Positions 5,245-48,041 of a DNA stretch of 48,041 nucleotides are shown here, in pieces (the first letter of the stretch is position 1; each line of letters starts with the position of its first letter). The stretch is from a virus. The notes under the pieces are model-generated. The model had not been told where the DNA came from, did not search any database, and worked only from the letters and a program-made list of their open reading frames with translations. The stretch lies in the IMG/VR virus record IMGVR_UViG_3300037483_000592; one strand, written 5' to 3'. A program made the position numbers and the translations under genes.

Positions 5245-7067
5245 TACCGGCCCCCCGTTTTCTTGCGGGCCTCTTCCTGGAGCTCCAGGCCTTCCATACG
5301 GCCCTTGAGCAGGAGCTGCTCCTCGACGCGCTTGGCTGCCGCGGCCTCGGCCTCCTGCTCACGCCGGGTGATGTCCTCGGCCGCCGTGGCCTGGCCGGCC
5401 TCGCCGACCTGCTGCCAGGTGTACTTCCCGCCTCGGGTCCTGGCCAGGCGGAACAGGGTGAGCTGCTTGCCCTCAACCTTGTAGGCGTAGGGGATCCCGC
5501 TGGCGCTGATCAGGATCGCGGTCCCCGGCTTCCCGCCATAGGCCCCGGTGGTGTCCGTGAACACGGAGGCGATGCCCTGCTCCGGGAACTCCGTCCGGGC
5601 CCGAGCCACCAGGTAGGCGTTGTACCGGGCCAGGTAGTCCTGGCGGGCGCCAACCAGGCCGGTGTACTTCCCCTCCTCGATGTCGCGGGAAAGCAGCTCG
5701 AACTCATCCAGCACCTTCTTGTCCCCGAAGAGGACCTCCCAGCTGCGGCGGCCCCAGCGGTCGATGTTGCGCATGGCCACCGGCTTCACCAGGTTGTTGG
5801 CGGCAGCCTCGATGGTTTTCTGATCGGCGTCCGGGTTGTCCTGCATCCAGGTCCGGAAGTCGTTGACTACCCGCATCTGATCCGGGCCGTCCAGACCCGA
5901 GGCCTTGGTTTCGATGTACTTGATGGCCGCGCTGAACGCTGGATCTTCCTTCACCCCCAGGTATTCGAAAGCCGCCTTCACGAAGGAGCCGCGGACCAGG
6001 GGCCGTCCCGTGCCTTCCTTGTCGCGGCCGTAGTAGGCATCTTCCACCATCTGCCGGAGGGACCCCAGCGGGATTTTTCCCTTACCGAGCGCCAGCCGGG
6101 CCCAGAAGGAGTCCTCGTTGTTCTTGTACCAATCATCCAGCGCCCCGGAAGGCAGGGTGCCCATGTTCAGGAGCTGGGCGCGCTTTGCCGCGAACCGCTG
6201 CTCCCAGGTGTACTTCTGATCCCCGTTGTAGAAGTCGGAGGCTGCCAGCTGCCCCACGGCCTGGTCGATCTTCTCGACGCTGTCCGCCTCGATGTGCAGG
6301 TCGGCGAAGGTCCGGTCCAGCTGCTCATCCGCCAGCTTCCCGGCCTGGCCCTGCTCCCGGGCCAGCTCGTCAGCAAGCTTCAACCGGGTGTCGGCGTCCA
6401 GGGAGTAGCTCTCTTCGGCGAAGGCCGCTTCCGCTTCCTCGCTGGCCAGCCAGGCTACCCCCTTCTCGCCCATCTGCCTGGCCGCCTCCATGGTCTTGTC
6501 CCGGACGACTTCCTGGATCGCCGCGTCCTTGAGCTTGGCCAGGTCGGAGGCCTCGAACTCCATGGCCGTGCCCGCGGCAGCCAGCTCCGATTGCACTCGA
6601 CCCACGTCCAGGTCCTGGATGGCCTGGTTGATGGACTGCACGCGGAGCGTTCGAGCGTGGTCGATTGCGCGGGTGTCGGAGAGCTTCTGCACGTTATCCG
6701 CCCAGCCTTGGCGCAGGTCCCCCAGCTGCCGTTCGATCTCCCGCTTGGCCCCCGGGAGCTTGAGGCCCTTGCCCAGCTCATCGCGCAGGCCAGAATAGAA
6801 GGTGTCCAGCTTCTCCCCGTAGTCGGCATACTCGGGATCCCGCTGCAGCTCGCTCCAGAAGGTCCGCCACTGATCGCGGGCCTTGTTGGCGGCATCGTTG
6901 GCCTGGTTGCGGTTGGCCAGGTCGAACATCTTTCCGGCGAAGCCGGTTGCAACCTGCTCGACTCCGGCGGCCAGCTGGCCCCGGGCCCGAGCCTCCGCGC
7001 CAGCCAGGCCTCGGCGGCTGGGTTTGCGCGGGACGCCGATTTGCGGCTGGTAGATCGGGATCGCCAT
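5244..7067 (-). CDS. Virion internal/core protein candidate (positional equivalent of T7 gp15); function unknown
   Basis: This is a 607-aa ORF with protein-like composition. It lies between the small TM protein and the giant gene. Its TAG overlaps the GTG start of the giant ORF. Confidence 0.7.
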   Translation of the reverse strand: MAIPIYQPQIGVPRKPSRRGLAGAEARARGQLAAGVEQVATGFAGKMFDLANRNQANDAANKARDQWRTFWSELQRDPEYADYGEKLDTFYSGLRDELGKGLKLPGAKREIERQLGDLRQGWADNVQKLSDTRAIDHARTLRVQSINQAIQDLDVGRVQSELAAAGTAMEFEASDLAKLKDAAIQEVVRDKTMEAARQMGEKGVAWLASEEAEAAFAEESYSLDADTRLKLADELAREQGQAGKLADEQLDRTFADLHIEADSVEKIDQAVGQLAASDFYNGDQKYTWEQRFAAKRAQLLNMGTLPSGALDDWYKNNEDSFWARLALGKGKIPLGSLRQMVEDAYYGRDKEGTGRPLVRGSFVKAAFEYLGVKEDPAFSAAIKYIETKASGLDGPDQMRVVNDFRTWMQDNPDADQKTIEAAANNLVKPVAMRNIDRWGRRSWEVLFGDKKVLDEFELLSRDIEEGKYTGLVGARQDYLARYNAYLVARARTEFPEQGIASVFTDTTGAYGGKPGTAILISASGIPYAYKVEGKQLTLFRLARTRGGKYTWQQVGEAGQATAAEDITRREQEAEAAAAKRVEEQLLLKGRMEGLELQEEARKKTGGR

Positions 7068-19328: not shown

Positions 19329-21037
19329 CAGGCGGCCCCGCTCATCATGGCTTCCATCGGGCTGCCCTTCTGCGGCCGCGTGCTCATCTTCGCGCCGGCC
19401 TCAGCTCCCGCCTTGGCCAACTCGGCCTGCTGCATGGCCTGCTGCAGCTTGGCCCGCTGCTCCCGGATCTTGGCCACTTCCTCGTCGGTGCGCACATCCT
19501 TCTCCGGGACCCCGTGCGCGTTGGCCAGGTCCTCCACGATCTCGTCCCAGTTGGGCCGGTCGAGCACGGCGTCTTGTGAGGGCACGGCGGCGACATCCTC
19601 CATGAACCCCCGGATGCCCTGGCGCTTGAACGCTCGCTGCTGGGCTACGGCCAGGGGCCCGATGAACTGAACTTTCATCCCGTACTTGGCCCTCCGCGGA
19701 TTGTCCGCGATCCAGTCCATGATCACCTGCGGGGGGGCCGGCAGCCGGCCCGCGCGGCCCGAGATAGATGCAGTCCGGCCGATGATCCGCTCCGGGCCCT
19801 CGGAGAGATACTGATTGACCAACGGTGCCAGCACCACAGCACGTTCGCCGATGGCTTCCTCGATTTCGGTAGCTGTCTGCTGCTTGCGCTCCATGAGGAT
19901 CCGCAGGAAGATGTCGTAGAAGTAATGCCGCTTCACGTGCTCTTCGAGGGTCTCCAAGACCTGGAAGCCCGCCGGCAGCTGAATGCCTCCCTGGTGGATC
20001 GGGTAGATGCTTCCGGCCGGGAATTGCTTCTCGTAGAAGTTCCATGCGCCCGGGTTCTTGGAGATCTGTCCGCGACGCTCGATTGGCGCGTCCATGGCCG
20101 GGTCGACCAGGCGCTGGGCACCCAGGATGTTGGCCATCGCCATGCCGCTGGCCATCTTCACATCGCGGATCGCGTTGCTGCCAGGCGAGCGGCCGTACTC
20201 CTCGCCACCATCCTGGATGCAGCGGGCGGTAATCACGGGCATTTCATCGTAGCCTTCCTCGCGCAGCATCCGGCTCATTTCGATGTCGACGTAGAAGGAC
20301 GCAATCGGCTTGTGCAGGTAGTGCAACAGGCCCTCGATCCGCTCTTCCCGCGGGACCAGCGCCCACAAGCAGCGGACCTCATCCAGCGGCCGGAGCCTGG
20401 CCTGCTTGGCGCGCTTCTCTCCCACTGCCTCTTCTCCGAACCAGTTCACCAGGTTGCGCAGGGTGATGTAGTACTCCCGCAGCTCGATGTCGATCTCCCC
20501 CTGCTCGTTTTCCCCGATGAAGATCTCCACCGGATGAAAGACCTTGTAGTAGGGGTACTGCTTGCCAGGCTGGTCGCCAGGGTAGCAGCTCGCCGTGCCC
20601 ACGCTGCCCAGGTCCCGCAGGAAGATGCCCAGCGCCTTGTACAGCCCGCCGCCCTGGAACTCGTCGTACATCTGCTCTTCATAGTCCTGGAGGTACTGCT
20701 TGACCTCGCTGACTTCGTTGAGCTCCTTGGCGCGCATCTTGTATCGCTGCCACCGGGAGCCCGGAGAGGCGGTATTGCCCAGGATCCCATCCGCCCAGAC
20801 GTGCAGACAGTGAGTCCCGATATCGTCGTAGACGTTGGCGTGGGTGGTCATGCCCTTCTGGTCGACGCCACGCAGCAGGATCTCCCGATCGGGCAGGATG
20901 TACTCGGCGACTTCGCGCCAGCGCTCTTCATGGCGCTTGCGCCGGGCCCGGTGCATCTCGAGTAGCCGGAGCAGCTCCTTGACTACCTCGATCTGCTTGA
21001 GGCTGTTCTCTTTGGCGAGGACGGTTGAATCAGCCAT
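19328..21037 (-). CDS. Portal (head-tail connector) protein
   Basis: The protein is 569 aa and lies immediately downstream of, and overlapping, the TerL gene. Its size and position are typical of podovirus portals. Confidence 0.75.
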   Translation of the reverse strand: MADSTVLAKENSLKQIEVVKELLRLLEMHRARRKRHEERWREVAEYILPDREILLRGVDQKGMTTHANVYDDIGTHCLHVWADGILGNTASPGSRWQRYKMRAKELNEVSEVKQYLQDYEEQMYDEFQGGGLYKALGIFLRDLGSVGTASCYPGDQPGKQYPYYKVFHPVEIFIGENEQGEIDIELREYYITLRNLVNWFGEEAVGEKRAKQARLRPLDEVRCLWALVPREERIEGLLHYLHKPIASFYVDIEMSRMLREEGYDEMPVITARCIQDGGEEYGRSPGSNAIRDVKMASGMAMANILGAQRLVDPAMDAPIERRGQISKNPGAWNFYEKQFPAGSIYPIHQGGIQLPAGFQVLETLEEHVKRHYFYDIFLRILMERKQQTATEIEEAIGERAVVLAPLVNQYLSEGPERIIGRTASISGRAGRLPAPPQVIMDWIADNPRRAKYGMKVQFIGPLAVAQQRAFKRQGIRGFMEDVAAVPSQDAVLDRPNWDEIVEDLANAHGVPEKDVRTDEEVAKIREQRAKLQQAMQQAELAKAGAEAGAKMSTRPQKGSPMEAMMSGAA

Positions 21038-22527
21038 TACCTGCCACCTCCGGGGCCCCAGGTGAAAGGATCGTAGCCTGTACCTTCAAGGGGATTATAG
21101 TGGTCGCGGTAGGCATAATTCAATAGCGGATCCCGAGCATCCGGACGCACGTCCGCCTTGAACAGCCGCACCATCAGGTATTGCAGCCCATCATGGACGT
21201 GCGAGTACTTGTTCTTCAGCACGTTCGGCAGGAACTCTCCCTGCAGGCTCTTGTTTGGCGGGTAGCAGTAGCCACCCAGAAAGCCGTTGATCAGGCGGGT
21301 GCAGCTGGGGTCGATGAGCACGCCATCGATGCGGCCCAGCTGCTGGTCCACCGATTCTACTCGGGCCTGGAAGTTCTGCTCGGACGGCGCCACGTCCACG
21401 CCGCAGTCATGCATCAGCTCGGCGTTGCTGGTGAAGCCGCCTTCTTTCTTTGGATATTGCGCGTTGGCCGCCGGATCCCCCCAGTGGGTGACTTCTTTGG
21501 CCCCGGGGAATGCTAGGTTGAGCTGGTGCACAACATAGTGGGTGAAATCCACAATGCCCATTCGGTCGCTGTAGTACTCGCGCAGAATATGGATCTGCCG
21601 CGGGCCCGGGATCTGAGCAACCACACAGGCCGGGCAGTTGCCGCTATTGTCCCAGCCGACGAATAATTCCCCGCCGGTCCAGGGCAGCGGATCTTCTTCG
21701 GGATCATCGGGAGTCTTGGCGACATGGTATTGCCGGCGGAAGTTGTTGTAGACCAAGCGCCCGACGATAATCACCCCGGGCTTGCCATCGATGTACATGT
21801 CGATCCAGTCCGGGTTTCCGAAATAGAGTAACCGCATGTCCTCGTAGTAGCCGGGCGGCAGGTTCTTGACGTTCTCGCGTGGAGGCTGCCAGTAGCCTCG
21901 GTGGCCAGGCAGCGGGTCCTTGGACGGCAGCGGGCCCGGGGGCGGTTGCTGCCAGGCGAAATCCGTGTAAGTGCTGTCCTCTACATCCGGCGGGTTGGTC
22001 GTCTCAATTCCGTACTTCTCGGGGCACTTCTTGGGGTAGCGGCCGATGCGGTTTTCCAGCATCAACTTGATCTGCTTGGGGACCTCGATCGACTCGTCAA
22101 TCCAGTACCCGGTGATCTCTAGGGACTTCAGTTTCTTGATGTGCTCCGGCCGGTCGCAGGAGCGAAACAGGATCTCCGCTTCGTAGCCGTCGCCACGGAT
22201 GATAAGTTCGAACTTGCTTTCCGACCAGTCCTTGCCGCTGAAGGCCTCCGGGAACCACTCCTTGACGGTGCGCAGCGTGGTGTCGCGCAGCTCGACGTAG
22301 GTATTGCGCACCACCACCCAGCGGGTCTTCTTGATCCCGTATTCCGCCAGCAGGTGCGCCGGTAGGAAGACGCCGACCTCCAGGGCTGCCGCGGTGGTCT
22401 TGCCGGATCCCACGGGCCCCACGATGCAGCGGATGACAGTGCTGTCCTCGTGGAACAGCTTCAGGGTCGGCAGCGGCTCGTAGTTGATGCGGTCCTGAGT
22501 GATTGCCTCGGCCGTGACGTTGGACAT
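21037..22527 (-). CDS. terL: Terminase large subunit
   Basis: The protein is 496 aa with an N-terminal Walker A (GPVGSGKT). It is followed by the portal gene. Confidence 0.85.
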   Translation of the reverse strand: MSNVTAEAITQDRINYEPLPTLKLFHEDSTVIRCIVGPVGSGKTTAAALEVGVFLPAHLLAEYGIKKTRWVVVRNTYVELRDTTLRTVKEWFPEAFSGKDWSESKFELIIRGDGYEAEILFRSCDRPEHIKKLKSLEITGYWIDESIEVPKQIKLMLENRIGRYPKKCPEKYGIETTNPPDVEDSTYTDFAWQQPPPGPLPSKDPLPGHRGYWQPPRENVKNLPPGYYEDMRLLYFGNPDWIDMYIDGKPGVIIVGRLVYNNFRRQYHVAKTPDDPEEDPLPWTGGELFVGWDNSGNCPACVVAQIPGPRQIHILREYYSDRMGIVDFTHYVVHQLNLAFPGAKEVTHWGDPAANAQYPKKEGGFTSNAELMHDCGVDVAPSEQNFQARVESVDQQLGRIDGVLIDPSCTRLINGFLGGYCYPPNKSLQGEFLPNVLKNKYSHVHDGLQYLMVRLFKADVRPDARDPLLNYAYRDHYNPLEGTGYDPFTWGPGGGR

Positions 22528-27004: not shown

Positions 27005-27240
27005 TGATACTCCTCCTCCACTTGCCCGCTTCCGCACCGCGGGCAGAAATCTGCCGGCTCCACGTCCTCGCCGGACCCATCGTCCTGGTAGTCGTGGCGC
27101 AGCCAGCGCACGGGCCCGGCCCAGCCGCACACGCTGCAGCTCACCGGCGCCCAATCAGTACAACGACCATGCCCTCCGCCGTGCTTTTGCTGCCAGGCCC
27201 ACAGGACCCGAGCAAGCAGCAGCCTCAGCCAGTTGGCCAC
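27001..27240 (-). CDS. Zinc-ribbon protein
   Basis: The protein is 79 aa with CSVC ... CPRC pairs. Confidence 0.6.
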   Translation of the reverse strand: MANWLRLLLARVLWAWQQKHGGGHGRCTDWAPVSCSVCGWAGPVRWLRHDYQDDGSGEDVEPADFCPRCGSGQVEEEYQ

Positions 27241-27863
27241 CGTGGAAACTCCTTCCGCCAGGGGCCGGTCCAGGGAAGGTTGTGCTTCATGTAGACTGGC
27301 ACCTTTGCCCGCAGCCAGGGCTCTATCCAGTCTGCCGACGGGATCACGCGGCCTGGCCGGTTTCCGCTCTCCGCAGCCAGAATCACCCAGTCTGTGAACG
27401 ACGTAGCCAGGAACGGCTCCGGATCCATCTTGGCCAGCATCGGCTCGTAGCTCCAGAACACAAGATTTCCTCGCGACTTGAGCGCCTGCACGTATTGATC
27501 CAGATCGCCGGGCCCGGTAACGGTCACGCCAAGCCAGCAGTTGCGCGGCAGCTGCAGGTTGTAGTAGACCTCCGGCTCCTTGGTGAGGAACAGGAAGGCG
27601 TGCTGCGGGTTGTTATCGATCCTGCCGAGCACGCGGTGCCACCAGTCCGGAGTCCAGAAGGCGATGTCGCTCATGCTGTTGACGAAGATCCGGGCCGGCT
27701 GCCGCGGCATGGCGCGGTTGAAGTTTCTCTCCCTCCAATGGGGCTCGAATGAGATCCCCCAGCGGTTGGCCGTCGCCCGGGCGTAGCAGTAGGGGCAACT
27801 GTTCCGGCAGCCCCAGGCAGGATTCCAGGTGTAATCGCACCAGTCGATCTTGGTCTTTTGCAT
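27225..27863 (-). CDS. Phage Gp37/Gp68 (DUF5131) family protein
   Basis: The N-terminus KIDWCDYTWNPAWGCRNSCPYCYA matches the family signature KIeW.d.TWNP..GC...C..CYA. Confidence 0.8.
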   Translation of the reverse strand: MQKTKIDWCDYTWNPAWGCRNSCPYCYARATANRWGISFEPHWRERNFNRAMPRQPARIFVNSMSDIAFWTPDWWHRVLGRIDNNPQHAFLFLTKEPEVYYNLQLPRNCWLGVTVTGPGDLDQYVQALKSRGNLVFWSYEPMLAKMDPEPFLATSFTDWVILAAESGNRPGRVIPSADWIEPWLRAKVPVYMKHNLPWTGPWRKEFPRWPTG

Positions 27864-29808: not shown

Positions 29809-30435
29809 TCACCTACACCTCTTCTTGAATACCCAGAAGTAGGAATGCATCTTCCGGGCGTGATTCTGCCGCTCCATGTTCCAGGGGATCGGCCTCGTCT
29901 TGCTCACGAAAATGAAAAGGTCCTTCGCGCGCAGGCCGACGCGCTCCGCCTCTTCCATGGCCCAGACGTGGAAGAAGTAATTCTGCCGGCCCCAGATGAA
30001 ATCCTGGCATTTGAAAACCAGGATGCCGGCGGGCTTGAGCACGCGGGCCAGCTCGGCCAGGGCCCCGCGGCAGAGTGCCCATAGATCGCCCAGCTTCTGC
30101 AGGCCCCCGTATTTCTTCACGAAGATCGCTTTCGAGGCGCCCTCCTGGCCGTGGATCATCCAGGGCGGATCGAAGATCGCGGAGCCGATCGAGCTGCTCT
30201 CCAGGGGGAGCCGGCAGACATCAGCCTGCGGGATCTCCGGCCGCCGGGGCGCCAGGTCGAAGCAGAGCTGCGGCCTCGGGATCCCTGCGTGGCGATAGAA
30301 GCCGCCGGCGCCGTAGGTCGGATCCAGCTCGAAGCCGGAAGGACAGTACAGGCTCATGATGTTCATCAGGATCTCATGCTGGTCGAAGCAAACCGACTGG
30401 ATGATGCCGGCTTCGCGAATCAATATCCCGGTCAC
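29809..30435 (-). CDS. DNA methyltransferase (N6-adenine or N4-cytosine class)
   Basis: The protein is 208 aa. It has a SAM-binding motif (LDPTYGAGGF), the catalytic motif IV (FDPPW) and LKPAGILVF. Confidence 0.8.
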   Translation of the reverse strand: MTGILIREAGIIQSVCFDQHEILMNIMSLYCPSGFELDPTYGAGGFYRHAGIPRPQLCFDLAPRRPEIPQADVCRLPLESSSIGSAIFDPPWMIHGQEGASKAIFVKKYGGLQKLGDLWALCRGALAELARVLKPAGILVFKCQDFIWGRQNYFFHVWAMEEAERVGLRAKDLFIFVSKTRPIPWNMERQNHARKMHSYFWVFKKRCR

Positions 30436-30788
30436 GGCTTCACCTCATCGAATGCCTTCATGAACCGCTTGTGCTGTTCATTCTCGCAGCGGCTCGCCCA
30501 TTCCAGGTTCGAGGCGGCGTTGTTGAACGTGTTGCAATCGAAGTGGTTGACCTCATGCTGGCCGAGCTCTGGCGGGGGAAGGAAAGCCGCCGCGACCAGG
30601 CGATGGACGCGGGCGGCCTTTCGCTTGTTCCACCGCCACAGATCGACCTTGAGGTAGGTCCCATTGCGCTTGGGCACAATGTTCTGCGCTACAAGCCTCA
30701 CGATCCCGATCTTGATCACCCTGCGCACCCGGCCAAGGTTGCTGACCTCGTAGGGGTAATGGTCGATGGGGCGCCATTCCTCGGTCAA
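30432..30788 (-). CDS. HNH homing endonuclease with NUMOD4 motif
   Basis: WRPIDHYPYEVSNLGRVRR is the NUMOD4 motif. VHRLVAAAF...VNHFDCNTFNNAASNLEWASRCENEQH is the HNH_3 motif. Confidence 0.85.
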   Translation of the reverse strand: MTEEWRPIDHYPYEVSNLGRVRRVIKIGIVRLVAQNIVPKRNGTYLKVDLWRWNKRKAARVHRLVAAAFLPPPELGQHEVNHFDCNTFNNAASNLEWASRCENEQHKRFMKAFDEVKP

Positions 30789-32479
30789 TTGAACAGCTCC
30801 TCGCTTGCTTTCAGCTCGGCGCGGCCTTCGACCAGCTCCAGCGTCCGCAGCCGGCCCAGCGCGTTCTGGAAACCACCGCCGGAGGGCTCATACCCCGTGG
30901 CGGCCCCGAGGTCCTCCTTCGTCGCCGCGGTTGGGTAGATCTCCGCCAGGCGGGAGAGGATCAACCGCTCCGCCTTCCCCAGCTGCCGCAGCCAATGTTC
31001 GAGCAGCTCGCGGCCGGAGGGCAGCGGATCGTAGGCGCCCAGGGCCGCCAGGCCGGCCTCGGTGATGCTCAGGAGGTCCCGGCCCTCGATGCAGCCCTTG
31101 CTGCGGAGGGCCCCCAGGTAATTCTGGAAGGCCCCGCCCGTGACGGCATACGCCGTGAGGATCGCTATCTGGCGTTTGGTGCGGCCCTGCGGGTACTGCG
31201 CCAGGGCGGTCAGGATCTTGCGCTCGCCGCCGGAAACGCGGCCATCGACTACTACCGGTCGAGAAACCGACCGCCGGGGGACAATCTGCGGCGTGACCCG
31301 CACCGCGGCCGCGGGCTTCTGCTCGGCGCCCAGGACCTGGTCCAGGGCCTGCAGCGCCAGGTTGACCTCCTTGCTGATGTCAACGAGCCGCCCCCGCAGC
31401 AGCAGCAGGCCAGGCCCCATAATCTTCTTTTCCTCTGCAGCTCCGGCCGCGCGGCCTTCTTCTCGAGCTCGCTGCAGGGCAGCCGGATCTACCGGGCCGC
31501 CGCGCTTCCGCAGCTCCGCGTCGAGGCAGGCGATCCGCTTCCGGAGCTCCCGGGGATCCTCGACCTTGGCGCGCTCGATGGTGGCGGCCAAGTCCTTTCG
31601 CAGCTTTTCCAGGTCGACCGCGGCGCTGGCCGTGGGGGCCAGGGGGCGCTCGCCGACCTTCGGGGTGGCGCTGGAGTCGAACGTCTTGCGCTCCCGGATC
31701 TGCACGCGCTTGAACAGATCTAGCCATCCGGGGCTCCAGACCCAGGCCTCGCCGATCCCCAGGCTGGCCAGGCTGTCCATGAACTCCTGCCGCTGGTCGT
31801 GCGCGTCGTGGGCCTCGACCCAGGCCTCCAGGGCCTTGCGATCCTGGGGGCTGATGGTGCGCAGGCAAATGAGGACCTCGATTTGCGTGAGGACGTCCTT
31901 GTTGACCACGGCCGCCCGCTGGCTGATCAGGGTAACGCCGATCCCGGAGGCCCGACCGCGGCGCACCAGGCGGTCGACCGAGCCGAACATGCGCTCCTGG
32001 CCGGCCTGGATCCTCTGCGGGACGAACTCGTCGGCCTCATCGATCACCACCTGCAGCGGTTGCCGGTATCGGTCCTGGCCCTTGCGGTGGTAGAGCCGCT
32101 CGCAGAAGTCCGTCACCAGGCGGCGCTGATCAGCCATCGAGAAATGCCGCATAGAGAGGATGATCGGCGCCCGGTTCTCCACGACGAAGTCCGCGACGAT
32201 CGCTCCGGAGCTCGCTTCCAGGGGCAGATCCCCATGCTCACCGCCCAGGACCGTGATCGGGAAGCCTGGCGTCTTGCCGTCGATCGAGGAGCGCAGGCCA
32301 AACCACACATCCAGGGGATCCAGGATCACTACCTGCTGGCCGGCGGCGAGCAGCTCCTCGGTGAGGACAACGGCCGTATGCGTCTTGCCGGCTCCGCGCT
32401 TGGCCAGGATCGCCGCGGTCTGCGTCACCATTTCGACAGGCAACGTCAGGCCGCGAGCAAGGTGCAATCCATCTTTCAT
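30785..32479 (-). CDS. HerA/FtsK-like P-loop ATPase with two C-terminal winged-helix repeats
   Basis: The protein is 564 aa from ATG 32479, with an ATGA overlap with the ParB-like gene. It has Walker A (KRGAGKTHT), Walker B (VVIDEADEF) and GIGVTLISQR. There are two wHTH-like repeats near the C-terminus. Confidence 0.75.
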   Translation of the reverse strand: MKDGLHLARGLTLPVEMVTQTAAILAKRGAGKTHTAVVLTEELLAAGQQVVILDPLDVWFGLRSSIDGKTPGFPITVLGGEHGDLPLEASSGAIVADFVVENRAPIILSMRHFSMADQRRLVTDFCERLYHRKGQDRYRQPLQVVIDEADEFVPQRIQAGQERMFGSVDRLVRRGRASGIGVTLISQRAAVVNKDVLTQIEVLICLRTISPQDRKALEAWVEAHDAHDQRQEFMDSLASLGIGEAWVWSPGWLDLFKRVQIRERKTFDSSATPKVGERPLAPTASAAVDLEKLRKDLAATIERAKVEDPRELRKRIACLDAELRKRGGPVDPAALQRAREEGRAAGAAEEKKIMGPGLLLLRGRLVDISKEVNLALQALDQVLGAEQKPAAAVRVTPQIVPRRSVSRPVVVDGRVSGGERKILTALAQYPQGRTKRQIAILTAYAVTGGAFQNYLGALRSKGCIEGRDLLSITEAGLAALGAYDPLPSGRELLEHWLRQLGKAERLILSRLAEIYPTAATKEDLGAATGYEPSGGGFQNALGRLRTLELVEGRAELKASEELFN

Positions 32480-33165
32480 CCGGTGCTCTCTTTCGGCATG
32501 GCTCGCAGGTAGCGCAGCACGGCCGCCTTGGCCTCCTTGCTCGAGCAAACGACGATAATATTGGGCCCTCGCGTGATGAAGATCTCGAAGCCTTCGCAGG
32601 GCACCCGCTCTCCGCGGTGGTAAGTGCCTTTCCTCTTCTTGACCTTACTCTCCTGGAGCTTCGCCTTGAGATCCTGCAGCTCCACGCCAGTGAGGGCCTC
32701 GAGGTACTGCTTCTTGAATCCCTGCGTGGCCAGCCATTGATAGGTACTCGCCATGCTGCGGTGGTAGCTCAGATAGCCCGGCCGCTTGCCGAGCATCGTA
32801 TCGAGCGCGCGGTCGGTCAGAGCAGGATTGCGCTTCTTGATTTCCTCCGCGGCCGCGAGGATCTCATCGGTGGAGAGCTGCTTGCGCACCATGTTCTCCT
32901 GCAGCTTGATCAGCGGAATGTCGCGCTCGGCGATGTCGTCTAGGATCCGTGCCGCAATGCAATAGTCCCCATTCATCTGAGCGACCCGGAAGCGCCGATG
33001 CCCCCAGACCAGCTCGTAGCGCTCCCCGCGGGGGTAGATCCCGATCGGCTGCAGCTGGGTGAAGCGCTGCGTACTACCGATAAGCTCGCCGAGCTCCTCA
33101 TCGATCTCGAAGCGGACATTCTTGACGATAAAGATCTTGTCGAGGGGCACGTCGCGGACTTTCAT
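32476..33165 (-). CDS. ParB-like N-terminal domain protein
   Basis: The protein is 229 aa and contains LQPIGIYPRGERYELVWGHRRFRVAQMNG, the ParB/Srx GxRR motif. Confidence 0.75.
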   Translation of the reverse strand: MKVRDVPLDKIFIVKNVRFEIDEELGELIGSTQRFTQLQPIGIYPRGERYELVWGHRRFRVAQMNGDYCIAARILDDIAERDIPLIKLQENMVRKQLSTDEILAAAEEIKKRNPALTDRALDTMLGKRPGYLSYHRSMASTYQWLATQGFKKQYLEALTGVELQDLKAKLQESKVKKRKGTYHRGERVPCEGFEIFITRGPNIIVVCSSKEAKAAVLRYLRAMPKESTG

Positions 33166-34440: not shown

Positions 34441-34812
34441 CTATCTCCTTTCTCTATCCGAGCGCTCGGATAGCGCCCGGTCTTTGGGCTTCGGCATCCG
34501 CTTGTTCCTTGCCAAGTCCTCCAGCGTTTCCCGGATCTTCTTCATGCCGGCCGCGCGTTCCTCGTGGCACATGGGCGGCGCCCCCAACAGGCGCACCGCA
34601 GGCGGTTGACTGCCCAGCTCCCCCAGGAGCCTGCGGAGCTTGGCCGCGGGCGGCGGCCAGTGATCCTCGTGTTTCCGCAACAGCTCGACGTAGAGCCTCT
34701 CCAACTCCCGCTCATCGACTCGCTGCAGGAACGTCCCGACAGCCTCGCGCATCCCGGGCAGGTACTGGCCGAAGGTGCGCTCCATTTGGTGCATGAACTC
34801 TCGCGCCTTCAC
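34441..34812 (-). CDS. Hypothetical protein coupled to the replication initiator
   Basis: The protein is 123 aa. It has an ATGA overlap with the initiator gene. Confidence 0.6.
   Translation of the reverse strand: MKAREFMHQMERTFGQYLPGMREAVGTFLQRVDERELERLYVELLRKHEDHWPPPAAKLRRLLGELGSQPPAVRLLGAPPMCHEERAAGMKKIRETLEDLARNKRMPKPKDRALSERSDRERR
34455..34472. repeat. Palindrome TATCCGAGCGCTCGGATA (contains copy 2 of the 16-mer at 14658)
   Basis: This is an 18-bp perfect palindrome. It lies in the short gap between genes 34441..34812 and 34122..34436. Confidence 0.9.
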
Positions 34813-35591
34813 AACTTCAACCTCGCCAACAGCTCACGGTTTTCCTGGCCGGCCTGGTGGTCGGCGGTCCGTTTCCGAAGGTGCTCCATGACATCATCGA
34901 AGCGGGTATCCAGAGCGGACGGCGTCATGGGCGCGTCCTTCCAGTATTCCGCCTTGCTGGTTTCTTTCTTGTGCTTGTAAGCGGCGACCAGGGCCCGGAG
35001 GAAAGCCCGCGGCTCCTGGCCGTTGGAAATGCGCTTGATCTTCTCGGCCAAACGACCGGCGGCCTTCTGCTCCCTCGGGTAGTTGCTGAACTCCTGCTCG
35101 TTGACCAGCTCCAGGCCCAGCAGAATCATGCGCTGAAGGTTGCTGGCCGCCGCCGCGGCCTCGAAGCCCTTCTCCAGCTCTGCCCGCTTCATTTCCGGTG
35201 ATTTCACCAAGGCCGGCGCAGCCGGCTCTTGCCCTTCATTGGGTTGCCCTTCATTGGGTTGCCCTTCGTGTCCGCTGGGCGGACTTCTGTTATCCGCTGG
35301 ACGGACTTCAGAAGTCCGTGGGGCGGACATCAGAATATAGGCGTTGCTTCGGCCGGTGCGTTGATATTCAAGCCAGCCAGCGGCCTGCAGGTCTTTGATC
35401 GCTTGGACGACGCTCATCTTGCCGCAGCCCCCAAGCTTCTGAATCCTCTTGTACGCCGGAAAGCAGCTGCCCGATTTGTCGGCATGCCTGGCCAGGACGA
35501 CATAGACCGTCTTGGCGTAAGGCGTCAGCTCGGAATCTATCAAGGCGTCTGGCACCACGAAGAAGTTGAAATCCCTTTGAATGCTCGCCAT
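34809..35591 (-). CDS. Replication initiator-like protein (N-terminal winged-helix HTH, low-complexity linker, C-terminal helical domain)
   Basis: FFVVPDALIDSELTPYAKTVYVVLARHADKSGSCFPAYKRIQKLGGCGKMSVVQAIKDLQAAGWL is the typical phage replication/DnaD-like HTH N-terminus. Confidence 0.65.
   Translation of the reverse strand: MASIQRDFNFFVVPDALIDSELTPYAKTVYVVLARHADKSGSCFPAYKRIQKLGGCGKMSVVQAIKDLQAAGWLEYQRTGRSNAYILMSAPRTSEVRPADNRSPPSGHEGQPNEGQPNEGQEPAAPALVKSPEMKRAELEKGFEAAAAASNLQRMILLGLELVNEQEFSNYPREQKAAGRLAEKIKRISNGQEPRAFLRALVAAYKHKKETSKAEYWKDAPMTPSALDTRFDDVMEHLRKRTADHQAGQENRELLARLKL
35229..35267. repeat. 15-nt tandem repeat, 2.6 copies (TTGCCCTTCATTGGG); encodes GQPNE repeats
   Basis: The copies lie at 35229-35243, 35244-35258 and 35259-35267 (partial). 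Confidence 0.95.
35271..35331. promoter_or_regulatory. Three 17-nt iteron-like direct repeats at 22-bp spacing; candidate replication origin inside the initiator gene
   Basis: The repeats are TCCGCTGGGCGGACTTC (35271), TCCGCTGGACGGACTTC (35293) and TCCGTGGGGCGGACATC (35315). The segment also holds the palindrome GGACTTCAGAAGTCC and is followed by an AT-richer patch. Confidence 0.5.
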
Positions 35592-35635: not shown

Positions 35636-35649
35636 GCGTAACGTTACGC
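35636..35649. promoter_or_regulatory. 14-bp perfect palindrome GCGTAACGTTACGC (operator candidate)
   Basis: It lies in the 68-nt gap between the small RHH gene (35660..35860) and the replication initiator start (35591). Confidence 0.4.
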
Positions 35650-36354: not shown

Positions 36355-37542
36355 TTAGAAATCCGCCGGCAGATCAAAGCTGCCGTCCTTGCGATAAGAA
36401 GGAGCCGGCGGGTCTACCGCGGTAGGCCCCGGCGAGGGCTTTCCCGCGGCTTCGGTGGCCGGCTCCATTTTCTTCTGTGGTTCATCGAACAGGCCCGGCT
36501 GCACCGGCTCGGCTGCCGGCGCCGGAGGCTGTTCCTTCTCGACCCTCTTCTGCAGGCCCTTGAGCTTGGATAGCATGCGCTCCTTGGCGGGATCCTCCGC
36601 GGCCTCGGCCAGCTCTCCGACGATCTCCCCCTCGAATACCCGCGTCACGATCTCGGCGGCCTGAGCAGCGGGAACAGCCTCATCAGCAGGCGGCCGAATG
36701 ACCGGCGCCGAGGACACCGGGCCCGGGAGCGCATCAGGGACAGCAAGCGGCTTCTTACCGGCTCGCTCACGCGCTCGGTCCACCTTGGGCCGGAGGTGAG
36801 CGTAGAGGATGAGCAGGTCCTCCCAGCCATTGGCGTGTTGCGTGCAGATATGGCACTTGGAGCAGAGGATAAGCCAGACCCAATCATCGCGGGCCCCGGT
36901 CCTGCCCCCGGCACCGACGCTGACAATATGCGATAGCTCTCCGCCATGCGCTTGATCTCCGCCTTCGACGGTATGTAGTAGAAACCGCCCGCATGCTTCG
37001 CAGCACGGATGCTTCTCCTTGTAGTCCTCCGGTCCATAGTAGGTTCCCTCCAGCGGGTCGGTTTCCTGGCGGAAGCGCCATTCAGTGAACAGGATCCAGA
37101 TGTCCCGGATGTCCACCGCGGGGACGTGCGTCTGGCACTCGATCACCAGCTGTTGAATGACCCGGGCAAACTCCACGGTCGTTAGATCGCCGCTCGGACG
37201 CGAAACGAAAATGCCCTTGTACTCGTCCCGCGGCAGCTCGACCAGCTCCTTGATCGCGTAGTAGACGACTTCCTTCTTGACCCCATCAGCCTGACCCAGC
37301 CGCGTGGCCAGCTCCCAAGCCAGGTTGTTGGCGTTCAGGCTGCGGCGGTTGTACCAGCGCTGGATCTGTACGTCGAAGGCGTGCTCGTATTCCGGTTCCT
37401 TCTCCTTGCGCTGCTTGATGAAGCGGTGTTCCTCGCGGAGGTAGGTGGTCAGTTCATCGACCAGCTCCTGCGCCTCCAGCATCAGAGTGCCGGGCAGGCC
37501 GCTGGAGATCTGCTTCATCTTGAGCCGGAGCTTCTCAATCAC
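36355..37542 (-). CDS. His-Me finger (HNH/DUF968-like) nuclease-domain protein with acidic-aromatic C-terminal tail
   Basis: GTG 37542 is preferred because of the SD GGAGGGG and a GTGA overlap with the upstream stop. The nuclease motif is CCEACGRF...ELSHIVSVGAGGRTG...LILCSKCHICTQHANGW. The protein ends in DGSFDLPADF. Confidence 0.5.
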   Translation of the reverse strand: MIEKLRLKMKQISSGLPGTLMLEAQELVDELTTYLREEHRFIKQRKEKEPEYEHAFDVQIQRWYNRRSLNANNLAWELATRLGQADGVKKEVVYYAIKELVELPRDEYKGIFVSRPSGDLTTVEFARVIQQLVIECQTHVPAVDIRDIWILFTEWRFRQETDPLEGTYYGPEDYKEKHPCCEACGRFLLHTVEGGDQAHGGELSHIVSVGAGGRTGARDDWVWLILCSKCHICTQHANGWEDLLILYAHLRPKVDRARERAGKKPLAVPDALPGPVSSAPVIRPPADEAVPAAQAAEIVTRVFEGEIVGELAEAAEDPAKERMLSKLKGLQKRVEKEQPPAPAAEPVQPGLFDEPQKKMEPATEAAGKPSPGPTAVDPPAPSYRKDGSFDLPADF

Positions 37543-37763
37543 GACACGCCCCTCCGGCCGAAGCAGAAGCGCAGCCACATGATGCTGCCGGTAACATGGC
37601 TCCGCCAGGGAAGCAGCCAGCAGCGGAAGCGTTTAGAGAAATGGTGCAGCGCAACGGGGCCGATGCAGAGCATCCTGTCCCCGTCGTTGAAAAGGTGAAT
37701 GGCGACGACTCCCGCCCTTCCGCCGAACTTGATCCAGCGATTCGTGTAGCCGACGCCTTTCAT
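37539..37763 (-). CDS. Hypothetical protein
   Basis: The protein is 74 aa from ATG 37763, with an ATGA overlap. Confidence 0.5.
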   Translation of the reverse strand: MKGVGYTNRWIKFGGRAGVVAIHLFNDGDRMLCIGPVALHHFSKRFRCWLLPWRSHVTGSIMWLRFCFGRRGVS

Positions 37764-44825: not shown

Positions 44826-47800
44826 TACTTCTTCTCCTCCGGCCAGCCGAGAAGCGCCCGGACGTCGCCCGTGCGAATGGCCTTGATTGCTCTCCGGGGC
44901 CCGGCATACGGCAGGCCCATCGCGAAGGAAAGAGTCTCCAGCATGTTCTTGAGCGCCGTGTCCCAGTCGCCTTCCGTGACCTGCTTGAAGGTCTCGGTGG
45001 CCGCGGATACCGCCGGCACCAGCTTCACCCCACCGCTCTGGAAGCGCTTGTCCGAGAGGATGGAGAAAACGTCATTCCCCACGATCGGCCAACTCTCCAC
45101 GAACTCGCTGGCCAGGCCCAGCAGCAGCCGCTTGCGCTTCTTCTCTTCGTCGTCCCCCTGCAGGGCCCCGGAGGCCAGGGCGATGAACATGCCGGCCATG
45201 GCGATCGAGGTTACGTCGGCCATGGCCCGCAGGAACTCCTTGCGCCGCAGGGCCAGTGGCACGTCGAAGCTCAGGCGGTTCCAGATGGCGTTGAGCTCGG
45301 AGGTGAACATGGTGAACCACTTGGCCAGCTCCCCCATCCGGTAGATCTGCGCCATGTCCTGCACCCTAGCGGAGGGCTGGGACCGCAGGGTGGCCTCATC
45401 GGCGGCCTCGATGGCCTTCAGCTCGTCGCCATCCGTCTCCCGCAGGATCTTGTCGTACACCGCCTTCCAGCCGATCGAAACGGTGGTGATGTCCATGATT
45501 TCCAGGCCCTTCATGCCCCACCGGCCGATCTTGCCGACGATGTTGTTGTACAGGCCCACGTTGGTGCGCTTCAGGTTCTCCAGCTCCTCGCTGATCTGGC
45601 GGTTGCGGACCAGCTCGCTGCGCGCCCTCACGAACTCCACCAGGGTGTTGCTGAAGATGTGCCCTCCGGCGATTGCCTTCACCTGGCCGGCGGCGAATTG
45701 CGCCGTCGCGGAGAGCAGGTATACCGGCGCCAGAGGCCCCAGGTCCGCCATGTAACCCAGCGAGCCCACCGCCTGCTTGGCCATGGAGAGCAGATTGAAT
45801 CCCAGCCAGGCGATCGTTGCGTGCGCGCGGCCCATGCGCGAGAGCCTTTCCAGCCCGCTCATGCTCACGTAGGCTTCGGCCTGCGCCAGGTCGTTGATGT
45901 ACTTGGAGAGCCAGTGGTTGAGCTCCGGCCCGTATTTCTGGGTAATGGCCTCCCGGACCTGGTCGCTTTCCAGGCTCCTGTGCATTTCCTTGATGATGGT
46001 GTCCTGGTGGATGAATCCCTCCTGGATCTTCACCCCCTCGACCCACAGATTGATCAGGTCGGTGCGGATGGGCTTCTGGTGAACGTCGGCGATATCAATG
46101 CGTTCATGGGTCGGGCCCCGGGCGATGTACTGCCTGCGCAACCCGGCCCGGCCGGTGAGCTCGGCGGCTACTTCATCCTGTCGGGTTTCGAAGCTGATCT
46201 CCTTCCGGCGCATGGGCACGTAGTGCGACTCCCCGGGCAGATCCTCGTTGAAGATGTCGATATACGCATCCCGCAGCCGGGGAAAGTTGCGCTCGAAGTC
46301 CTCGGCGATGGTGTCGGCCAGCGCGCGCTCTTTCTCCGTGAGCTTGCCGATCCCCTTGAGAACCACGGTCAGCGGTAGGTTGTTGCCTCGCGGCAGGCCC
46401 TCCGGAGAGGTCACCAGCGCGGCAAAAGTGCGCTGGTTCTGGATCCCGATGTGCCAGTACATGACCTCCTGCAGCGTCGGCAGCTTCCCGTTGGTGTAGC
46501 GGAAGCCGTCGATGTCGAAGTCCCGCCCTACCCATTCGAGGCCCTTCTTCGCGCTCACCTGGTCGAAGCTGAAGCCCAGCTCCTTGGCCTTGTTGACGAC
46601 CTTTTCCATGCGCACGCGCACGGCCTTCTTGTAGGCCCCCCAGGCCTCGTTGACGCGCTTCTGGCCCAACTCGCTGAAGGCGCCTTTCTCCTGGCCGGCG
46701 AACACGCCATCCAGAAGCGCCAGCACGCGGTTGGGCTTCCAGCTGGAGATCAGGCCCTTGAGCAGCAGCGGCGTGGGCTTCACGCCACCCACCGGCTTTT
46801 CGGGCTCCTCGCCCCGGAGGACCGCGGCGGAAAGGCGGTTCTTCAACTCAGCGCGCTGCCGGAACTTCGCCTGCACCTCCAGGAAGCGCATCAGGGAACC
46901 GGTCCGGCGCAGGCCGTCCAGGATCTCGGCGACTCGCTCGAGCTCCGCCATGGTCATTTTCGACAGGGGCACCGAGTAGATCCGGTCCAGCTCCTCCTTT
47001 CTCATCAGGGCGGCGGCCTCCGGATGCTCATCGAAGAACTTGCGCCACTGTTCCCGGGAGTAGACGGTCTGCTTCTGGCGCTTCACCGGATCCAGGCCGC
47101 GCTGGATCTCTCGGATCTGCTCGGCATAGCCGCGGAACTGGATCCCCCGGCCCGGCGGCCGCATGATGTCCTTGAGCAGCTTCTTGCGGGCGTCCCGGAG
47201 CTTCTTGGCGGCCCGGCGCTGGGCGGCGGCCTTGCGCATGCCCTCCTTGGTCCGGGCCACCGCGGCCTTCTTCTCCGCGTAGAACTTCACCCGGCTGGCC
47301 TTCCGCTCGGCCTTGGCCTTTTCCTCATCGATCAGCTTCTGGATCTCCCGGCCGAACACGATCCCTTCCGTATAGGCCTGGGCTTCCTCAACTGGGGCCT
47401 CTTTCGCGAGGATCCGCTTCCAGGCGCCCTGCTCCTGCATGATCAGGGCGACGTGGGCGTTGCCGGCCAGGGCGTTGCGCAACCTGGTCCGCAGGGACTT
47501 GATCCGGCGCTCGATGGCCTCCAGCTGCTCCTGCTTGCCGGTTTTCTGCTCCCGCTCGGCCATCGCGGTCTCCAGCTCCTCGCCGGCCTTGACCGCGACC
47601 TGCTCTTCGGCGGTGAGACTGCCCAGCACTTCCTCCGCGGCTTCGACCTGCTCCTTGGCGGTAGTCTCTACCTCTGCCGTCAAGCCCAGCGCATCGAGGG
47701 CCAATTCCTCGATTTCGGCTTCGGTGAGGTCGCCGGTGACGGCCTTGGCGGCGAGCTCCGGATTCTCGATGTCCTTGGCCGCCTCTACCTTCGCCTGGTA

Positions 47801-48041
47801 GTCGTAGGTCGGCGCGCTGGGAAGCACAGGGCTCTGGATCGGCACGGTGGCCGGGGCTGGCGGCTCCGGCTTGTGGGCTTCCTCCCAGACCTCTTCGTAG
47901 AATCGCTGGGCCTTCTCGCCGGCCAGGTCGGCGTCCCCGGGCTCCCCGTACTTCCCCTCGATGTCCGCGCGGAAGGCCTCCGCGCTCTCGAAGCCCTTGG
48001 CCAGCTCCACATATTGCTGGTAGATCTCCGCGTCAACGGCG
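44825..48041 (-). CDS. C-terminal part of the same giant ORF (the track's 1061-aa ORF begins at an internal GTG, not a true start)
   Basis: Codons upstream of 48010 stay open to the window edge (...AVDAEIYQQY-VELAKGF...). This sequence is the duplicate of nt 1-127, where the frame continues. The C-terminal region has hydrophobic helices (HATIAWLGFNLLSMAKQAVGSLGYM, VTSIAMAGMFIALASGAL). Confidence 0.85.
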   Translation of the reverse strand, partial: AVDAEIYQQYVELAKGFESAEAFRADIEGKYGEPGDADLAGEKAQRFYEEVWEEAHKPEPPAPATVPIQSPVLPSAPTYDYQAKVEAAKDIENPELAAKAVTGDLTEAEIEELALDALGLTAEVETTAKEQVEAAEEVLGSLTAEEQVAVKAGEELETAMAEREQKTGKQEQLEAIERRIKSLRTRLRNALAGNAHVALIMQEQGAWKRILAKEAPVEEAQAYTEGIVFGREIQKLIDEEKAKAERKASRVKFYAEKKAAVARTKEGMRKAAAQRRAAKKLRDARKKLLKDIMRPPGRGIQFRGYAEQIREIQRGLDPVKRQKQTVYSREQWRKFFDEHPEAAALMRKEELDRIYSVPLSKMTMAELERVAEILDGLRRTGSLMRFLEVQAKFRQRAELKNRLSAAVLRGEEPEKPVGGVKPTPLLLKGLISSWKPNRVLALLDGVFAGQEKGAFSELGQKRVNEAWGAYKKAVRVRMEKVVNKAKELGFSFDQVSAKKGLEWVGRDFDIDGFRYTNGKLPTLQEVMYWHIGIQNQRTFAALVTSPEGLPRGNNLPLTVVLKGIGKLTEKERALADTIAEDFERNFPRLRDAYIDIFNEDLPGESHYVPMRRKEISFETRQDEVAAELTGRAGLRRQYIARGPTHERIDIADVHQKPIRTDLINLWVEGVKIQEGFIHQDTIIKEMHRSLESDQVREAITQKYGPELNHWLSKYINDLAQAEAYVSMSGLERLSRMGRAHATIAWLGFNLLSMAKQAVGSLGYMADLGPLAPVYLLSATAQFAAGQVKAIAGGHIFSNTLVEFVRARSELVRNRQISEELENLKRTNVGLYNNIVGKIGRWGMKGLEIMDITTVSIGWKAVYDKILRETDGDELKAIEAADEATLRSQPSARVQDMAQIYRMGELAKWFTMFTSELNAIWNRLSFDVPLALRRKEFLRAMADVTSIAMAGMFIALASGALQGDDEEKKRKRLLLGLASEFVESWPIVGNDVFSILSDKRFQSGGVKLVPAVSAATETFKQVTEGDWDTALKNMLETLSFAMGLPYAGPRRAIKAIRTGDVRALLGWPEEKK
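47915..48041. repeat. Terminal direct repeat copy 2
   Basis: Identical to nt 1-127. Confidence 0.97.

Follow-up and report, generated by a model that had tools for sequence, protein, structure and literature searches.

Several motors that pump double-stranded DNA (dsDNA) carry a C-terminal winged helix that reads DNA sequence, as in the gamma domain of FtsK, which recognises KOPS, and in Streptomyces TraB, which recognises clt. HerA motors of the same P-loop clade are described in archaeal HerA-NurA and in the bacterial antiphage systems Sir2-HerA and DUF4297-HerA. Here we analyse a viral DNA of 48,041 nucleotides (IMG/VR record IMGVR_UViG_3300037483_000592; this whole stretch is referred to as the window), in which the gene of a ParB-like protein overlaps the gene of a HerA/FtsK-clade ATPase that ends in two winged helix-turn-helix (wHTH) domains. 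The first-pass annotation had placed the ParB, ATPase, HNH endonuclease and DNA methyltransferase genes in one operon, with a non-canonical ParB/HerA-like pair at its centre. Our results indicate instead that the locus is probably a lineage-specific juxtaposition of separate modules within a mosaic early accessory region of the phage, with the ATPase as an autonomous motor.

Comparative genomics has described HerA/FtsK capture systems, which combine such an ATPase with wHTH domains in mobile-element and conflict contexts (PMC10853773, PMC12839542). The phage ATPase shares this combination, and some of the neighbour types are alike, e.g. D5-type helicases; however, conserved partners (nucleases, Orc/Cdc6 or BREX-like proteins) accompany the capture systems, whereas the family of the phage ATPase consists of single polypeptides, is mainly phage-borne and has no conserved partner. 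With HerA it has in common the P-loop clade, the Walker A and B motifs, a glutamine sensor and arginines clustered ahead of strand 4, and its best matches by fold, Pfam, NCBIfam and PADLOC were all HerA, but it is without the HAS barrel, and its core is extended by a helical stalk and a C-terminal pair of winged helices. The resemblance to FtsK/SpoIIIE and TraB is one of analogy: the order of a motor followed by a C-terminal wHTH is shared and could give sequence-directed loading, although the phage protein has neither an alpha domain nor a membrane anchor, and its two wHTHs, in place of one, have no detectable relation to the gamma domain. The packaging ATPases of membrane-containing viruses (STIV2 B204, PH1 and PRD1/A32-like proteins) have a core of similar size and fold, whereas the ATPase studied here is encoded by an early gene of a tailed phage that has its own large terminase subunit (TerL), and it carries a C-terminal extension of 290 amino acids (aa).

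Conservation of the ATPase neighbourhood

Neighbouring genes were compared in two sets of loci, a first set of 85 (80 from IMG/VR, one from INPHARED, three contigs from metagenomes or metagenome-assembled genomes, and the window) and a second set of 80 genome loci, giving 159 loci in total with usable ATPase coordinates. Genes were called on the same strand in these loci, the DNA being high in GC. Neither BLAST clustering nor all-against-all phmmer comparison revealed a conserved immediate neighbour of the ATPase in 78-79 viral loci, where the largest clusters of flanking genes had 3 members upstream and 2 downstream. A Pfam census of 298 proteins (≥140 aa) encoded within ~2.2 kb of the ATPase at 72-74 viral loci found DUF5131 in 12, C5 methyltransferase in 10, ParB_N in 7 and HNH_3 in 7, with genes of replication, recombination and modification making up a long tail. 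The partners of described HerA systems, NurA, Sir2 and DUF4297, appeared neither among the top 25 Pfam families of this census nor in the window.

ParB itself was located within ~6 kb of the ATPase at 14 of the 85 first-set loci and at 10 of the 80 genome loci (iterated ParB profile), or ~15%, and within 1 kb at 12 of ~159 loci (~8%), mostly directly upstream. The most frequent neighbour was DUF5131, present in 30 of the 159 ATPase loci and within 1 kb in 16 of them; a family of long proteins with ParB_N and HTH_ParB domains occurred in 22 (11 within 1 kb), and a C5 methylase in 15-16, with a further one at eight mycobacterial loci that are syntenic. ATPases with an adjacent ParB were scattered over 8-9 of 37-59 subclusters, and the distributions of DUF5131 and C5 methyltransferase were equally patchy. 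Since DUF5131 and methylases recur just as ParB does, and all are typical accessory cargo, we read these associations as co-residence in one module. A similar zone of accessory cargo between replication and late genes is the nin region of lambda. The ATPase also co-occurred with dedicated replicative helicases and primases (DnaB_C, D5/DUF5906, Prim-Pol), and one integrated element carried ParA as well as the ATPase.

The genomic surroundings of the 229-aa ParB family were compared in nine distinct contexts (the window, L002, L078, L085, L086, L087, L090, L092 and L094). This family is small, with 50 proteins down to 47% identity, and is far exceeded by that of the ATPase, with more than 3,829. 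The ATPase was intact in four of the nine contexts, reduced to an internal-deletion remnant in two and absent from three (L085, L087 and L092). An intact ATPase gene immediately downstream of ParB was seen only in the window and in the sibling phage L090, whose ATPase and ParB are 83% and 87% identical to those of the window; in L002 and L078 it was upstream of ParB, with two small genes between them in the former and 3 kb away in the latter. The remnant in L086 (6708-7004) encodes 98 aa, in which the first 21 ATPase residues are fused to the second wHTH, and in the remnant in L094 (6924-7574) the N-terminus of a neighbouring gene is fused to the wHTHs. This pattern shows that phages of this lineage keep the ParB gene together with g117, the gene upstream of it, and repeatedly lose the ATPase.

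These results do not sustain the proposal of one coupled system made of ParB, ATPase, HNH endonuclease and methylase, because no neighbour is conserved, the sibling phage is without the methylase and the ATPase has been lost; nor do they sustain a conserved ParB/HerA-like pairing, given how seldom ParB is near the ATPase and that phages retaining ParB have lost the motor. Two observations had been named beforehand as telling against the pair, namely a pairing not conserved in other genomes and an ATPase belonging to a known replicative or packaging family; the former was made, and the latter was not.

Sequence, fold and family of the ATPase

The first-pass description of the protein as a P-loop ATPase of the HerA/FtsK/DUF87 type held on closer analysis. 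The motifs KRGAGKTHT and VVIDEADEF are both present in its 564 residues, and Pfam matches were obtained to HerA_C (1.8e-9) and DUF87 (2.2e-7). An AlphaFold2 (AF2) model based on a 41-sequence alignment had a mean predicted local distance difference test (pLDDT) score of 89.8. In this model the ASCE core begins almost at the P-loop, which starts from residue 29, and RRGR at 173-176 lies just before a strand (180-186) that ends in Q187. Residues G29, K32, T33, D147, E148, R173, R174, R176, Q187 and R188 were invariant or nearly so among 41 homologues. Members of the FtsK-HerA superfamily are recognised by Walker A and B motifs on an ASCE core, an arginine finger before strand 4 and a glutamine sensor-1 at the end of that strand (PMC10853773), and all of these features were found in the ATPase.

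The best Foldseek matches in PDB were Sulfolobus HerA (4d2i, 2.7e-14), HerA-NurA and antiphage HerAs; the STIV2 B204 packaging ATPase matched the core with TMt 0.74-0.79, and matches in BFVD comprised packaging ATPases of membrane-containing viruses and one HerA-like protein of a Klebsiella phage. The AF2 model has no HAS barrel, merely two short strands ahead of strand 1, and no transmembrane segment was detected in the protein, the maximum Kyte-Doolittle hydropathy over 19 residues being 1.37. Pfam gave no FtsK_SpoIIIE match to the ATPase. Scores against NCBIfam were 66.7 bits for helicase_HerA (cutoff 970) and ~30 bits for the HerA_antiphage models (cutoffs 800-850), and in the HerA models the profile matches were confined to the C-terminal half. 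The missing barrel and transmembrane segment, together with scores that amount to a small fraction of the HerA cutoffs, identify the protein as a member of the superfamily and not as a HerA ortholog.

Behind the core, the stalk was modelled as three helices (290-307, 309-325 and 332-383), of which the first part is conserved and the remainder variable in the homologue alignment, and it is followed by a linker (386-410) with pLDDT below 50. Two wHTH-like repeats had been expected at the C-terminus, and the model contains the order H-H-H-beta-beta twice. The isolated C-terminal module, with the same two units, was modelled at a pLDDT of 95.7, and the first wHTH was above 90 in the full model as well. 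Both winged helices contain the motif GGxFxNxLxxLR and align to each other with a score of 112 and ~40% identity, so that they are internal duplicates; their mean column identity among homologues is 61%. Assignment of the tandem wHTH to a specific family failed, with PDB sequence and fold searches returning only generic MarR, ArsR, SelB, RPC34 and ScpB-like matches (best E 4.8e-3). No model in Pfam, NCBIfam, PADLOC or PHROGs covered the full architecture of the ATPase, and literature searches found no description of the family. The first-pass impression that the locus matches no described system was likewise upheld by searches of these databases, PDB and the literature.

The family is very large. 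A word-indexed search found more than 3,829 full-length homologues of ~560 aa, and when the wHTH module alone served as profile, 8,286 representatives (50% identity) were matched, including 1,094 with E ≤ 1e-30. Proteins with the complete order of ATPase, stalk and tandem wHTH form at least 1,000 clusters at 50% identity and come from more than ten bacterial phyla. Relatives were present on 206 IMG/VR contigs and in 141 GTDB species representatives, the carriers in GTDB belonging to Acidobacteriota, Actinomycetota, Planctomycetota, Nitrospira/Nitrospirota, Spirochaetota, Chloroflexota, Armatimonadota and Patescibacteria, and cultured carriers including Mycolicibacterium, Microbacterium, Nocardia, Nocardioides and Kribbella. 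Among the strains in culture are Mycolicibacterium rhodesiae JS60 (L166), Microbacterium sp. oral taxon 186 F0373 (L151) and Nocardia salmonicida NBRC 13393 (L195). Homologues were also located in accessory regions of prophages and of integrated elements, some of them non-viral. INPHARED contained one homologue only, in MW202482 (42% identity, annotated 'hera helicase'), where ParB does not appear among the annotated neighbours and the next gene upstream is an unscanned hypothetical of 254 aa. Eight genomes of Mycolicibacterium or Mycobacterium (L166, L170-L172, L177 and L180-L182), all from cultured strains, share a syntenic element around the ATPase, in which DUF6884 precedes the ATPase gene, and the genes of a C5 DNA methylase and of a 660-aa protein of unknown function come after it.

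Variant architectures were found as well. N-terminally extended forms exist, and one homologue of 927 aa (P0312) has an intein-like insertion right after Walker B (DEADRF|C...TGN|C) with a LAGLIDADG-like domain just under the Pfam cutoff (2e-4). The tandem wHTH module is joined to DUF1643 in place of the ATPase in P0175, and P0267 consists solely of wHTHs, in three or four copies; the module is therefore a portable targeting unit. Deletion derivatives of the ATPase are recurrent, P0177 being one with an internal deletion, and they retain, in frame, the very N-terminus, the C-terminal wHTH module or both, which could reflect either gene decay or selectable stand-alone wHTH proteins.

The ParB protein and its upstream partner

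The 229-aa protein matched Pfam ParB_N (2.2e-6), phrog_3264 (1.5e-19) and the TIGR00180 and Noc models (2.2e-11). A profile of its family aligned over residues 21-140 with Bacillus subtilis Spo0J (6sdk, 2.7e-14), and this alignment spans the pairs GHRR/GERR and QENxxRK/ENLQR as well as the helix-turn-helix (HTH); Noc and other ParBs also align. Among 25 homologues, G55, H56, R57, R58, E90, N91 and R94 were invariant or nearly so. By these sequence features the protein is a genuine ParB, with a predicted cytidine triphosphate (CTP) pocket in its N-domain and an HTH. It shares both with chromosomal and plasmid ParB, Noc and KorB; it differs from them in being short, in having a C-terminal domain specific to its family, in having no ParA, and in that its parS is only a candidate palindrome. 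Of what defines a ParABS system, the CTP-pocket N-domain and HTH are thus present and an accompanying ParA is not. The first-pass annotation had called the pair non-canonical because the usual partners of ParB are ParA-type ATPases, and the absence of ParA was confirmed in all six frames of the window, where a regular-expression scan found no KGGxGK[ST] motif and where the P-loop scan found two P-loops only, those of the HerA-like ATPase and TerL, so that the phage has no ParA.

A homologue of g117 was present directly upstream of ParB in 8 of the 9 contexts, usually with a 4-nt overlap; outside the window these homologues, of ~115 aa, were found in L002, L078, L085, L087, L090, L092 and L094. 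The conserved partner of this ParB family is g117 and not the ATPase. Pfam gave only sub-threshold HTH matches to the g117 homologues, and the small, possibly HTH-containing partner conserved upstream of ParB is comparable to KorA beside KorB only as an analogy, by which the pairing may be KorA/KorB-like.

Candidate DNA sites

As for parS-like repeats, which the first-pass annotation had raised, the search gave a mixed answer. A perfect 16-bp palindrome, ATCCGAGCGCTCGGAT, occurs twice in the window, and it recurs at the syntenic early-region position in the sibling L090 (5237-5252), but it is absent from the other loci of the ParB family. The flanks of the two copies are unrelated, which shows that they are not parts of a longer duplication, and under a simple 4^-16 estimate the sequence would recur exactly by chance with a probability of ~1e-5. 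Even when up to 3 mismatches were allowed, the window contained no additional copy. Scanning IMG/VR for exact copies returned 5 stretches on 4 contigs with no ParB, g117 or ATPase nearby, an uninformative background. Another palindrome, the 14-bp GCGTAACGTTACGC, is intergenic, just upstream of the operon of the replication initiator, and is kept in three related phages, the window, L090 (4020-4033) and L002 (2853-2866); it is likely an operator.

The initiator gene itself contains two adjacent tandem arrays, one made of 2.6 copies of the 15-nt unit TTGCCCTTCATTGGG with 100% match and the other of 3 copies of the 22-nt unit GTCCGCTGGGCGGACTTCAGAA. They resemble an origin of the iteron type located within the coding sequence of the initiator, an arrangement also present in lambda, where the origin iterons are inside the gene of O. 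Apart from these, a general repeat scan of 26-38 kb found no convincing repeats.

Gene layout and genome setting

Five genes (g117, ParB, ATPase, HNH endonuclease and methyltransferase) are chained on the minus strand by 4-nt overlaps of start and stop codons (Table 1). The first-pass annotation had placed the ParB gene and its ATGA overlap with the ATPase gene correctly, and also the HNH endonuclease and small DPPW methyltransferase that follow. In our view the translational coupling of the five genes reflects tight packing of phage genes and not a conserved multi-subunit machine.

Table 1. Positions of the features discussed in the text, in window coordinates
Feature	Position	Strand	Remarks
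g117, 117 aa	33162-33515	-	stop overlaps ParB start (ATGA); weak HTH-like N-terminus
ParB-like protein, 229 aa	32476-33165	-	ParB_N domain, ParB-type HTH, family-specific C-terminal domain
HerA/FtsK-clade ATPase, 564 aa from ATG	30785-32479	-	start overlaps ParB stop TGA (ATGA)
ATPase core, aa 1-275	31655-32479	-	Pfam DUF87 and HerA_C
Helical stalk, aa 290-383, then disordered linker, aa 386-410	31331-31612	-	AF2 model
Winged helix 1, aa 414-482	31034-31240	-	AF2 model
Winged helix 2, aa 487-564	30788-31021	-	AF2 model; stop codon 30785-30787
NUMOD4 + HNH_3 endonuclease, free-standing, 118 aa	30432-30788	-	TTG start overlaps ATPase stop (TTGA)
DNA methyltransferase, small orphan, DPPW, 208 aa	29809-30435	-	GTG start overlaps HNH stop (GTGA)
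DUF5131 protein (Gp37/Gp68-type)	27225-27863	-	Pfam DUF5131 1.9e-27
Large terminase subunit (canonical TerL)	21037-22527	-	phrog_2 3.1e-24
Presumed portal gene, 569 aa	19328-21037		adjoins terminase; phrog_332 5.7e-91, PHROGs label 'head-tail adaptor'
HTH_36 replication initiator	34809-35591		early gene
Tandem array of TTGCCCTTCATTGGG	35229-35267		inside initiator gene
Tandem array of GTCCGCTGGGCGGACTTCAGAA	35270-35335		inside initiator gene
14-bp palindrome GCGTAACGTTACGC	35636-35649		intergenic
16-bp perfect palindrome ATCCGAGCGCTCGGAT, copy 1	34456-34471		~1 kb upstream of g117
16-bp perfect palindrome ATCCGAGCGCTCGGAT, copy 2	14658-14673		gene junction in tail module

The window is a tailed-phage genome with nearly every gene on the minus strand. 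Its bases 1-127 are exactly identical to bases 47915-48041, a terminal assembly overlap, which indicates a complete circular or circularly permuted genome of ~47.9 kb. The 569-aa gene with the phrog_332 match is presumed to encode the portal, by its size and its place directly after the terminase, and the tail genes come next to these two late genes. The early genes include those of an Erf-type annealing protein, two exonucleases and the HTH_36 initiator, and the cluster of five is placed between the replication genes and the late genes, a region that we regard as a mosaic early accessory region.

The HNH gene matched HNH_3 (9.4e-9) and NUMOD4 (3.7e-8) in Pfam, phrog_59 (3.8e-33) and a PADLOC 'homing endonuclease' (2.9e-15), by which it would be a homing endonuclease; it is present in the sibling L090 and not in L002. 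The methyltransferase matched phrog_24333 (1.7e-60), N6_N4_Mtase of Pfam below the cutoff (6.5e-4) and a type II/orphan methyltransferase of PADLOC, and it is probably an orphan protective enzyme. At its position L090 has an unrelated gene of 131 aa and no methylase. The DUF5131 protein contains a CX3CX2C motif (GCRNSCPYC), and its match to TIGR04471, 'radical SAM mobile pair protein A' (2.2e-27), is below the cutoff and amounts to partial similarity.

Five large open reading frames (ORFs) of the window had no Pfam match: 44825-48010 (1061 aa), 41169-42422 (417 aa), 36355-37578 (407 aa), 5244-7067 (607 aa) and 3440-4834 (464 aa). Each matched at most one PHROG, of unknown function. The Pfam scan recognised neither an integrase nor a ParA among the remaining large ORFs of the window.

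Interpretation and alternative explanations

We propose that the cluster comprises four modules. In the first, g117 and ParB, the latter would load as a dimer on a palindromic site and would act in the manner of Noc or KorB, as a ParA-independent clamp that regulates or organises phage DNA. The second, the ATPase, would form a ring and translocate along dsDNA after its own winged helices have tethered it to specific sites, much as with the FtsK gamma domain or TraB of Streptomyces; it needs no dedicated partner gene, and phages can lose it. The HNH endonuclease and the methyltransferase are the third and fourth modules, both variable inserts. For the ATPase, the most likely activity is that of an autonomous dsDNA translocase guided by the winged helices it carries. 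For its biological role the candidates are an accessory function in recombination or replication, help in DNA modification, exclusion of competing elements, and DNA organisation linked to ParB.

Several points weigh against this interpretation. ParB is found near the ATPase above a naive genome-wide rate, although that baseline is not matched for the kind of module. The 12 loci with ParB within 1 kb come from several phyla and 8-9 ATPase subclades, and their ParBs belong to two unrelated families; an ATPase relative was found within 8 kb in 4 of 34 distant phage ParB loci. A facultative link of the ATPase to ParB, or to DNA modification, therefore keeps a small probability. It is from homology that we predict hexamer formation and DNA translocation for the ATPase, recognition of specific sequences by its wHTHs, and CTP binding for ParB; ATCCGAGCGCTCGGAT is only a candidate operator or parS-like site, for ParB or for another dimeric HTH protein.

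Among other explanations, the ATPase could belong to a DNA-modification or anti-restriction island, in which this sequence-targeted translocase would give modification enzymes (orphan methylases and the radical-SAM-like DUF5131) access to the phage genome or strip host restriction complexes from it. The leading neighbours, DUF5131 and methylases of three classes (C5, N6_N4 and D12), fit this idea, as do the methyltransferase two genes and the DUF5131 gene ~3 kb downstream of the ATPase in the window, and a match of the ATPase at 2.5e-19 to PADLOC mad8, a component of the MADS defence system. We nevertheless consider it unlikely, since each modification gene is confined to ~20% of the loci or fewer, the sibling phage is without the methylase, genes of this kind are typical of any mosaic early region, and the ATPase was not fused to a modification domain in any of the inspected architectures.

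Equally doubtful, and based on analogy with the repair of double-strand breaks by archaeal HerA, is a recombination or replication accessory motor, which would act in branch migration, end processing or fork remodelling together with Erf/RecT, exonucleases and resolvases. HerA is the closest fold, the early region of the window contains Erf, two exonucleases and the HTH_36 initiator, and relatives of the ATPase are located near YqaJ/RecT, RusA and RuvC. On the other hand, none of the partners NurA, Mre11 and Rad50 was seen, the HAS barrel is missing, sequence-specific tandem wHTHs would be unexpected in a general repair motor, and the gene is frequently lost. A role as replicative helicase or initiator is disfavoured, because the window has its HTH_36 initiator with iterons and relatives have DnaB, a D5-type helicase or Prim-Pol.

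It is rather improbable that ParB and the ATPase form a functional pair, in which a CTP-loaded ParB clamp on parS would recruit or load the translocase, as a substitute for ParA or in the manner of a loader of SMC (structural maintenance of chromosomes) complexes, and segregate, condense or position DNA. The ATGA coupling in a genome without ParA is what this model would lead one to expect, and it draws further support from the 12 close ParB loci in two families and diverse taxa, from the ATPase relatives at 4 of 34 distant ParB loci, and from the wHTH-keeping remnants that still stand beside ParB or g117 in L086 and L094. Weighed against this are the ~85% of ATPase loci without a ParB within 6 kb and the ParB contexts themselves, three without the ATPase and two in which it was destroyed while ParB and g117 stayed intact. 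Order and spacing also vary, with the ATPase upstream or downstream at 0-3 kb, ParA and the ATPase occur together in one element, and DUF5131 is adjacent more often than ParB.

A prophage-encoded factor for exclusion or defence that resembles the HerA/FtsK capture systems, and that would intercept rival mobile DNA by fast-evolving wHTHs and possibly pass it to a nuclease such as the adjacent HNH endonuclease, is improbable. Antiphage HerAs are among the closest relatives by profile and structure, capture systems with HerA/FtsK and wHTH have been described (PMC10853773, PMC12839542), the ATPase is found in accessory regions of prophages and integrated elements, and an HNH gene is adjacent in the window; however, neither a nuclease nor any other effector is a conserved partner, the wHTHs are well conserved at the column identity given above and not hypervariable, and the HNH endonuclease, with its NUMOD4 domain, is a homing-type enzyme found in few loci. 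A packaging ATPase or alternative terminase, suggested by phrog_2666 ('terminase large subunit', 7.6e-20) and by the resemblance of the core to the packaging ATPases of STIV2, PH1 and corticovirus, is effectively refuted, since the phrog_2666 match covers the P-loop core only (profile 321-505 of 555), the canonical TerL is encoded elsewhere in the window beside the presumed portal gene while the ATPase gene is early, and homologues are also found in non-viral integrated elements.

Significance

The proposed ParB-HerA machine mostly dissolves on this evidence, and the adjacency of the two genes appears as a local arrangement in a mosaic phage region. What emerges is that the ATPase stands for a very large family, whose members join a HerA/FtsK-clade motor to a duplicated winged-helix module in one polypeptide and for which literature searches found no description. 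There is a slim chance that these proteins constitute an unrecognised class of self-targeting dsDNA translocases of phages and integrated elements, brought to particular sites on the DNA of the element itself, some of which would work with ParB-CTP clamps, as loader or roadblock, or with modification enzymes, in ParA-independent, motor-driven organisation, segregation or protection of mobile DNA.

The compact, ParA-less and CTP-competent-looking ParB with its small conserved partner is a candidate phage analogue of the CTP switch of KorA-KorB or Noc. The DNA target and role of the ATPase, once found, would give phage biology a new type of sequence-directed DNA motor, a goal brought within reach by the cultured hosts.

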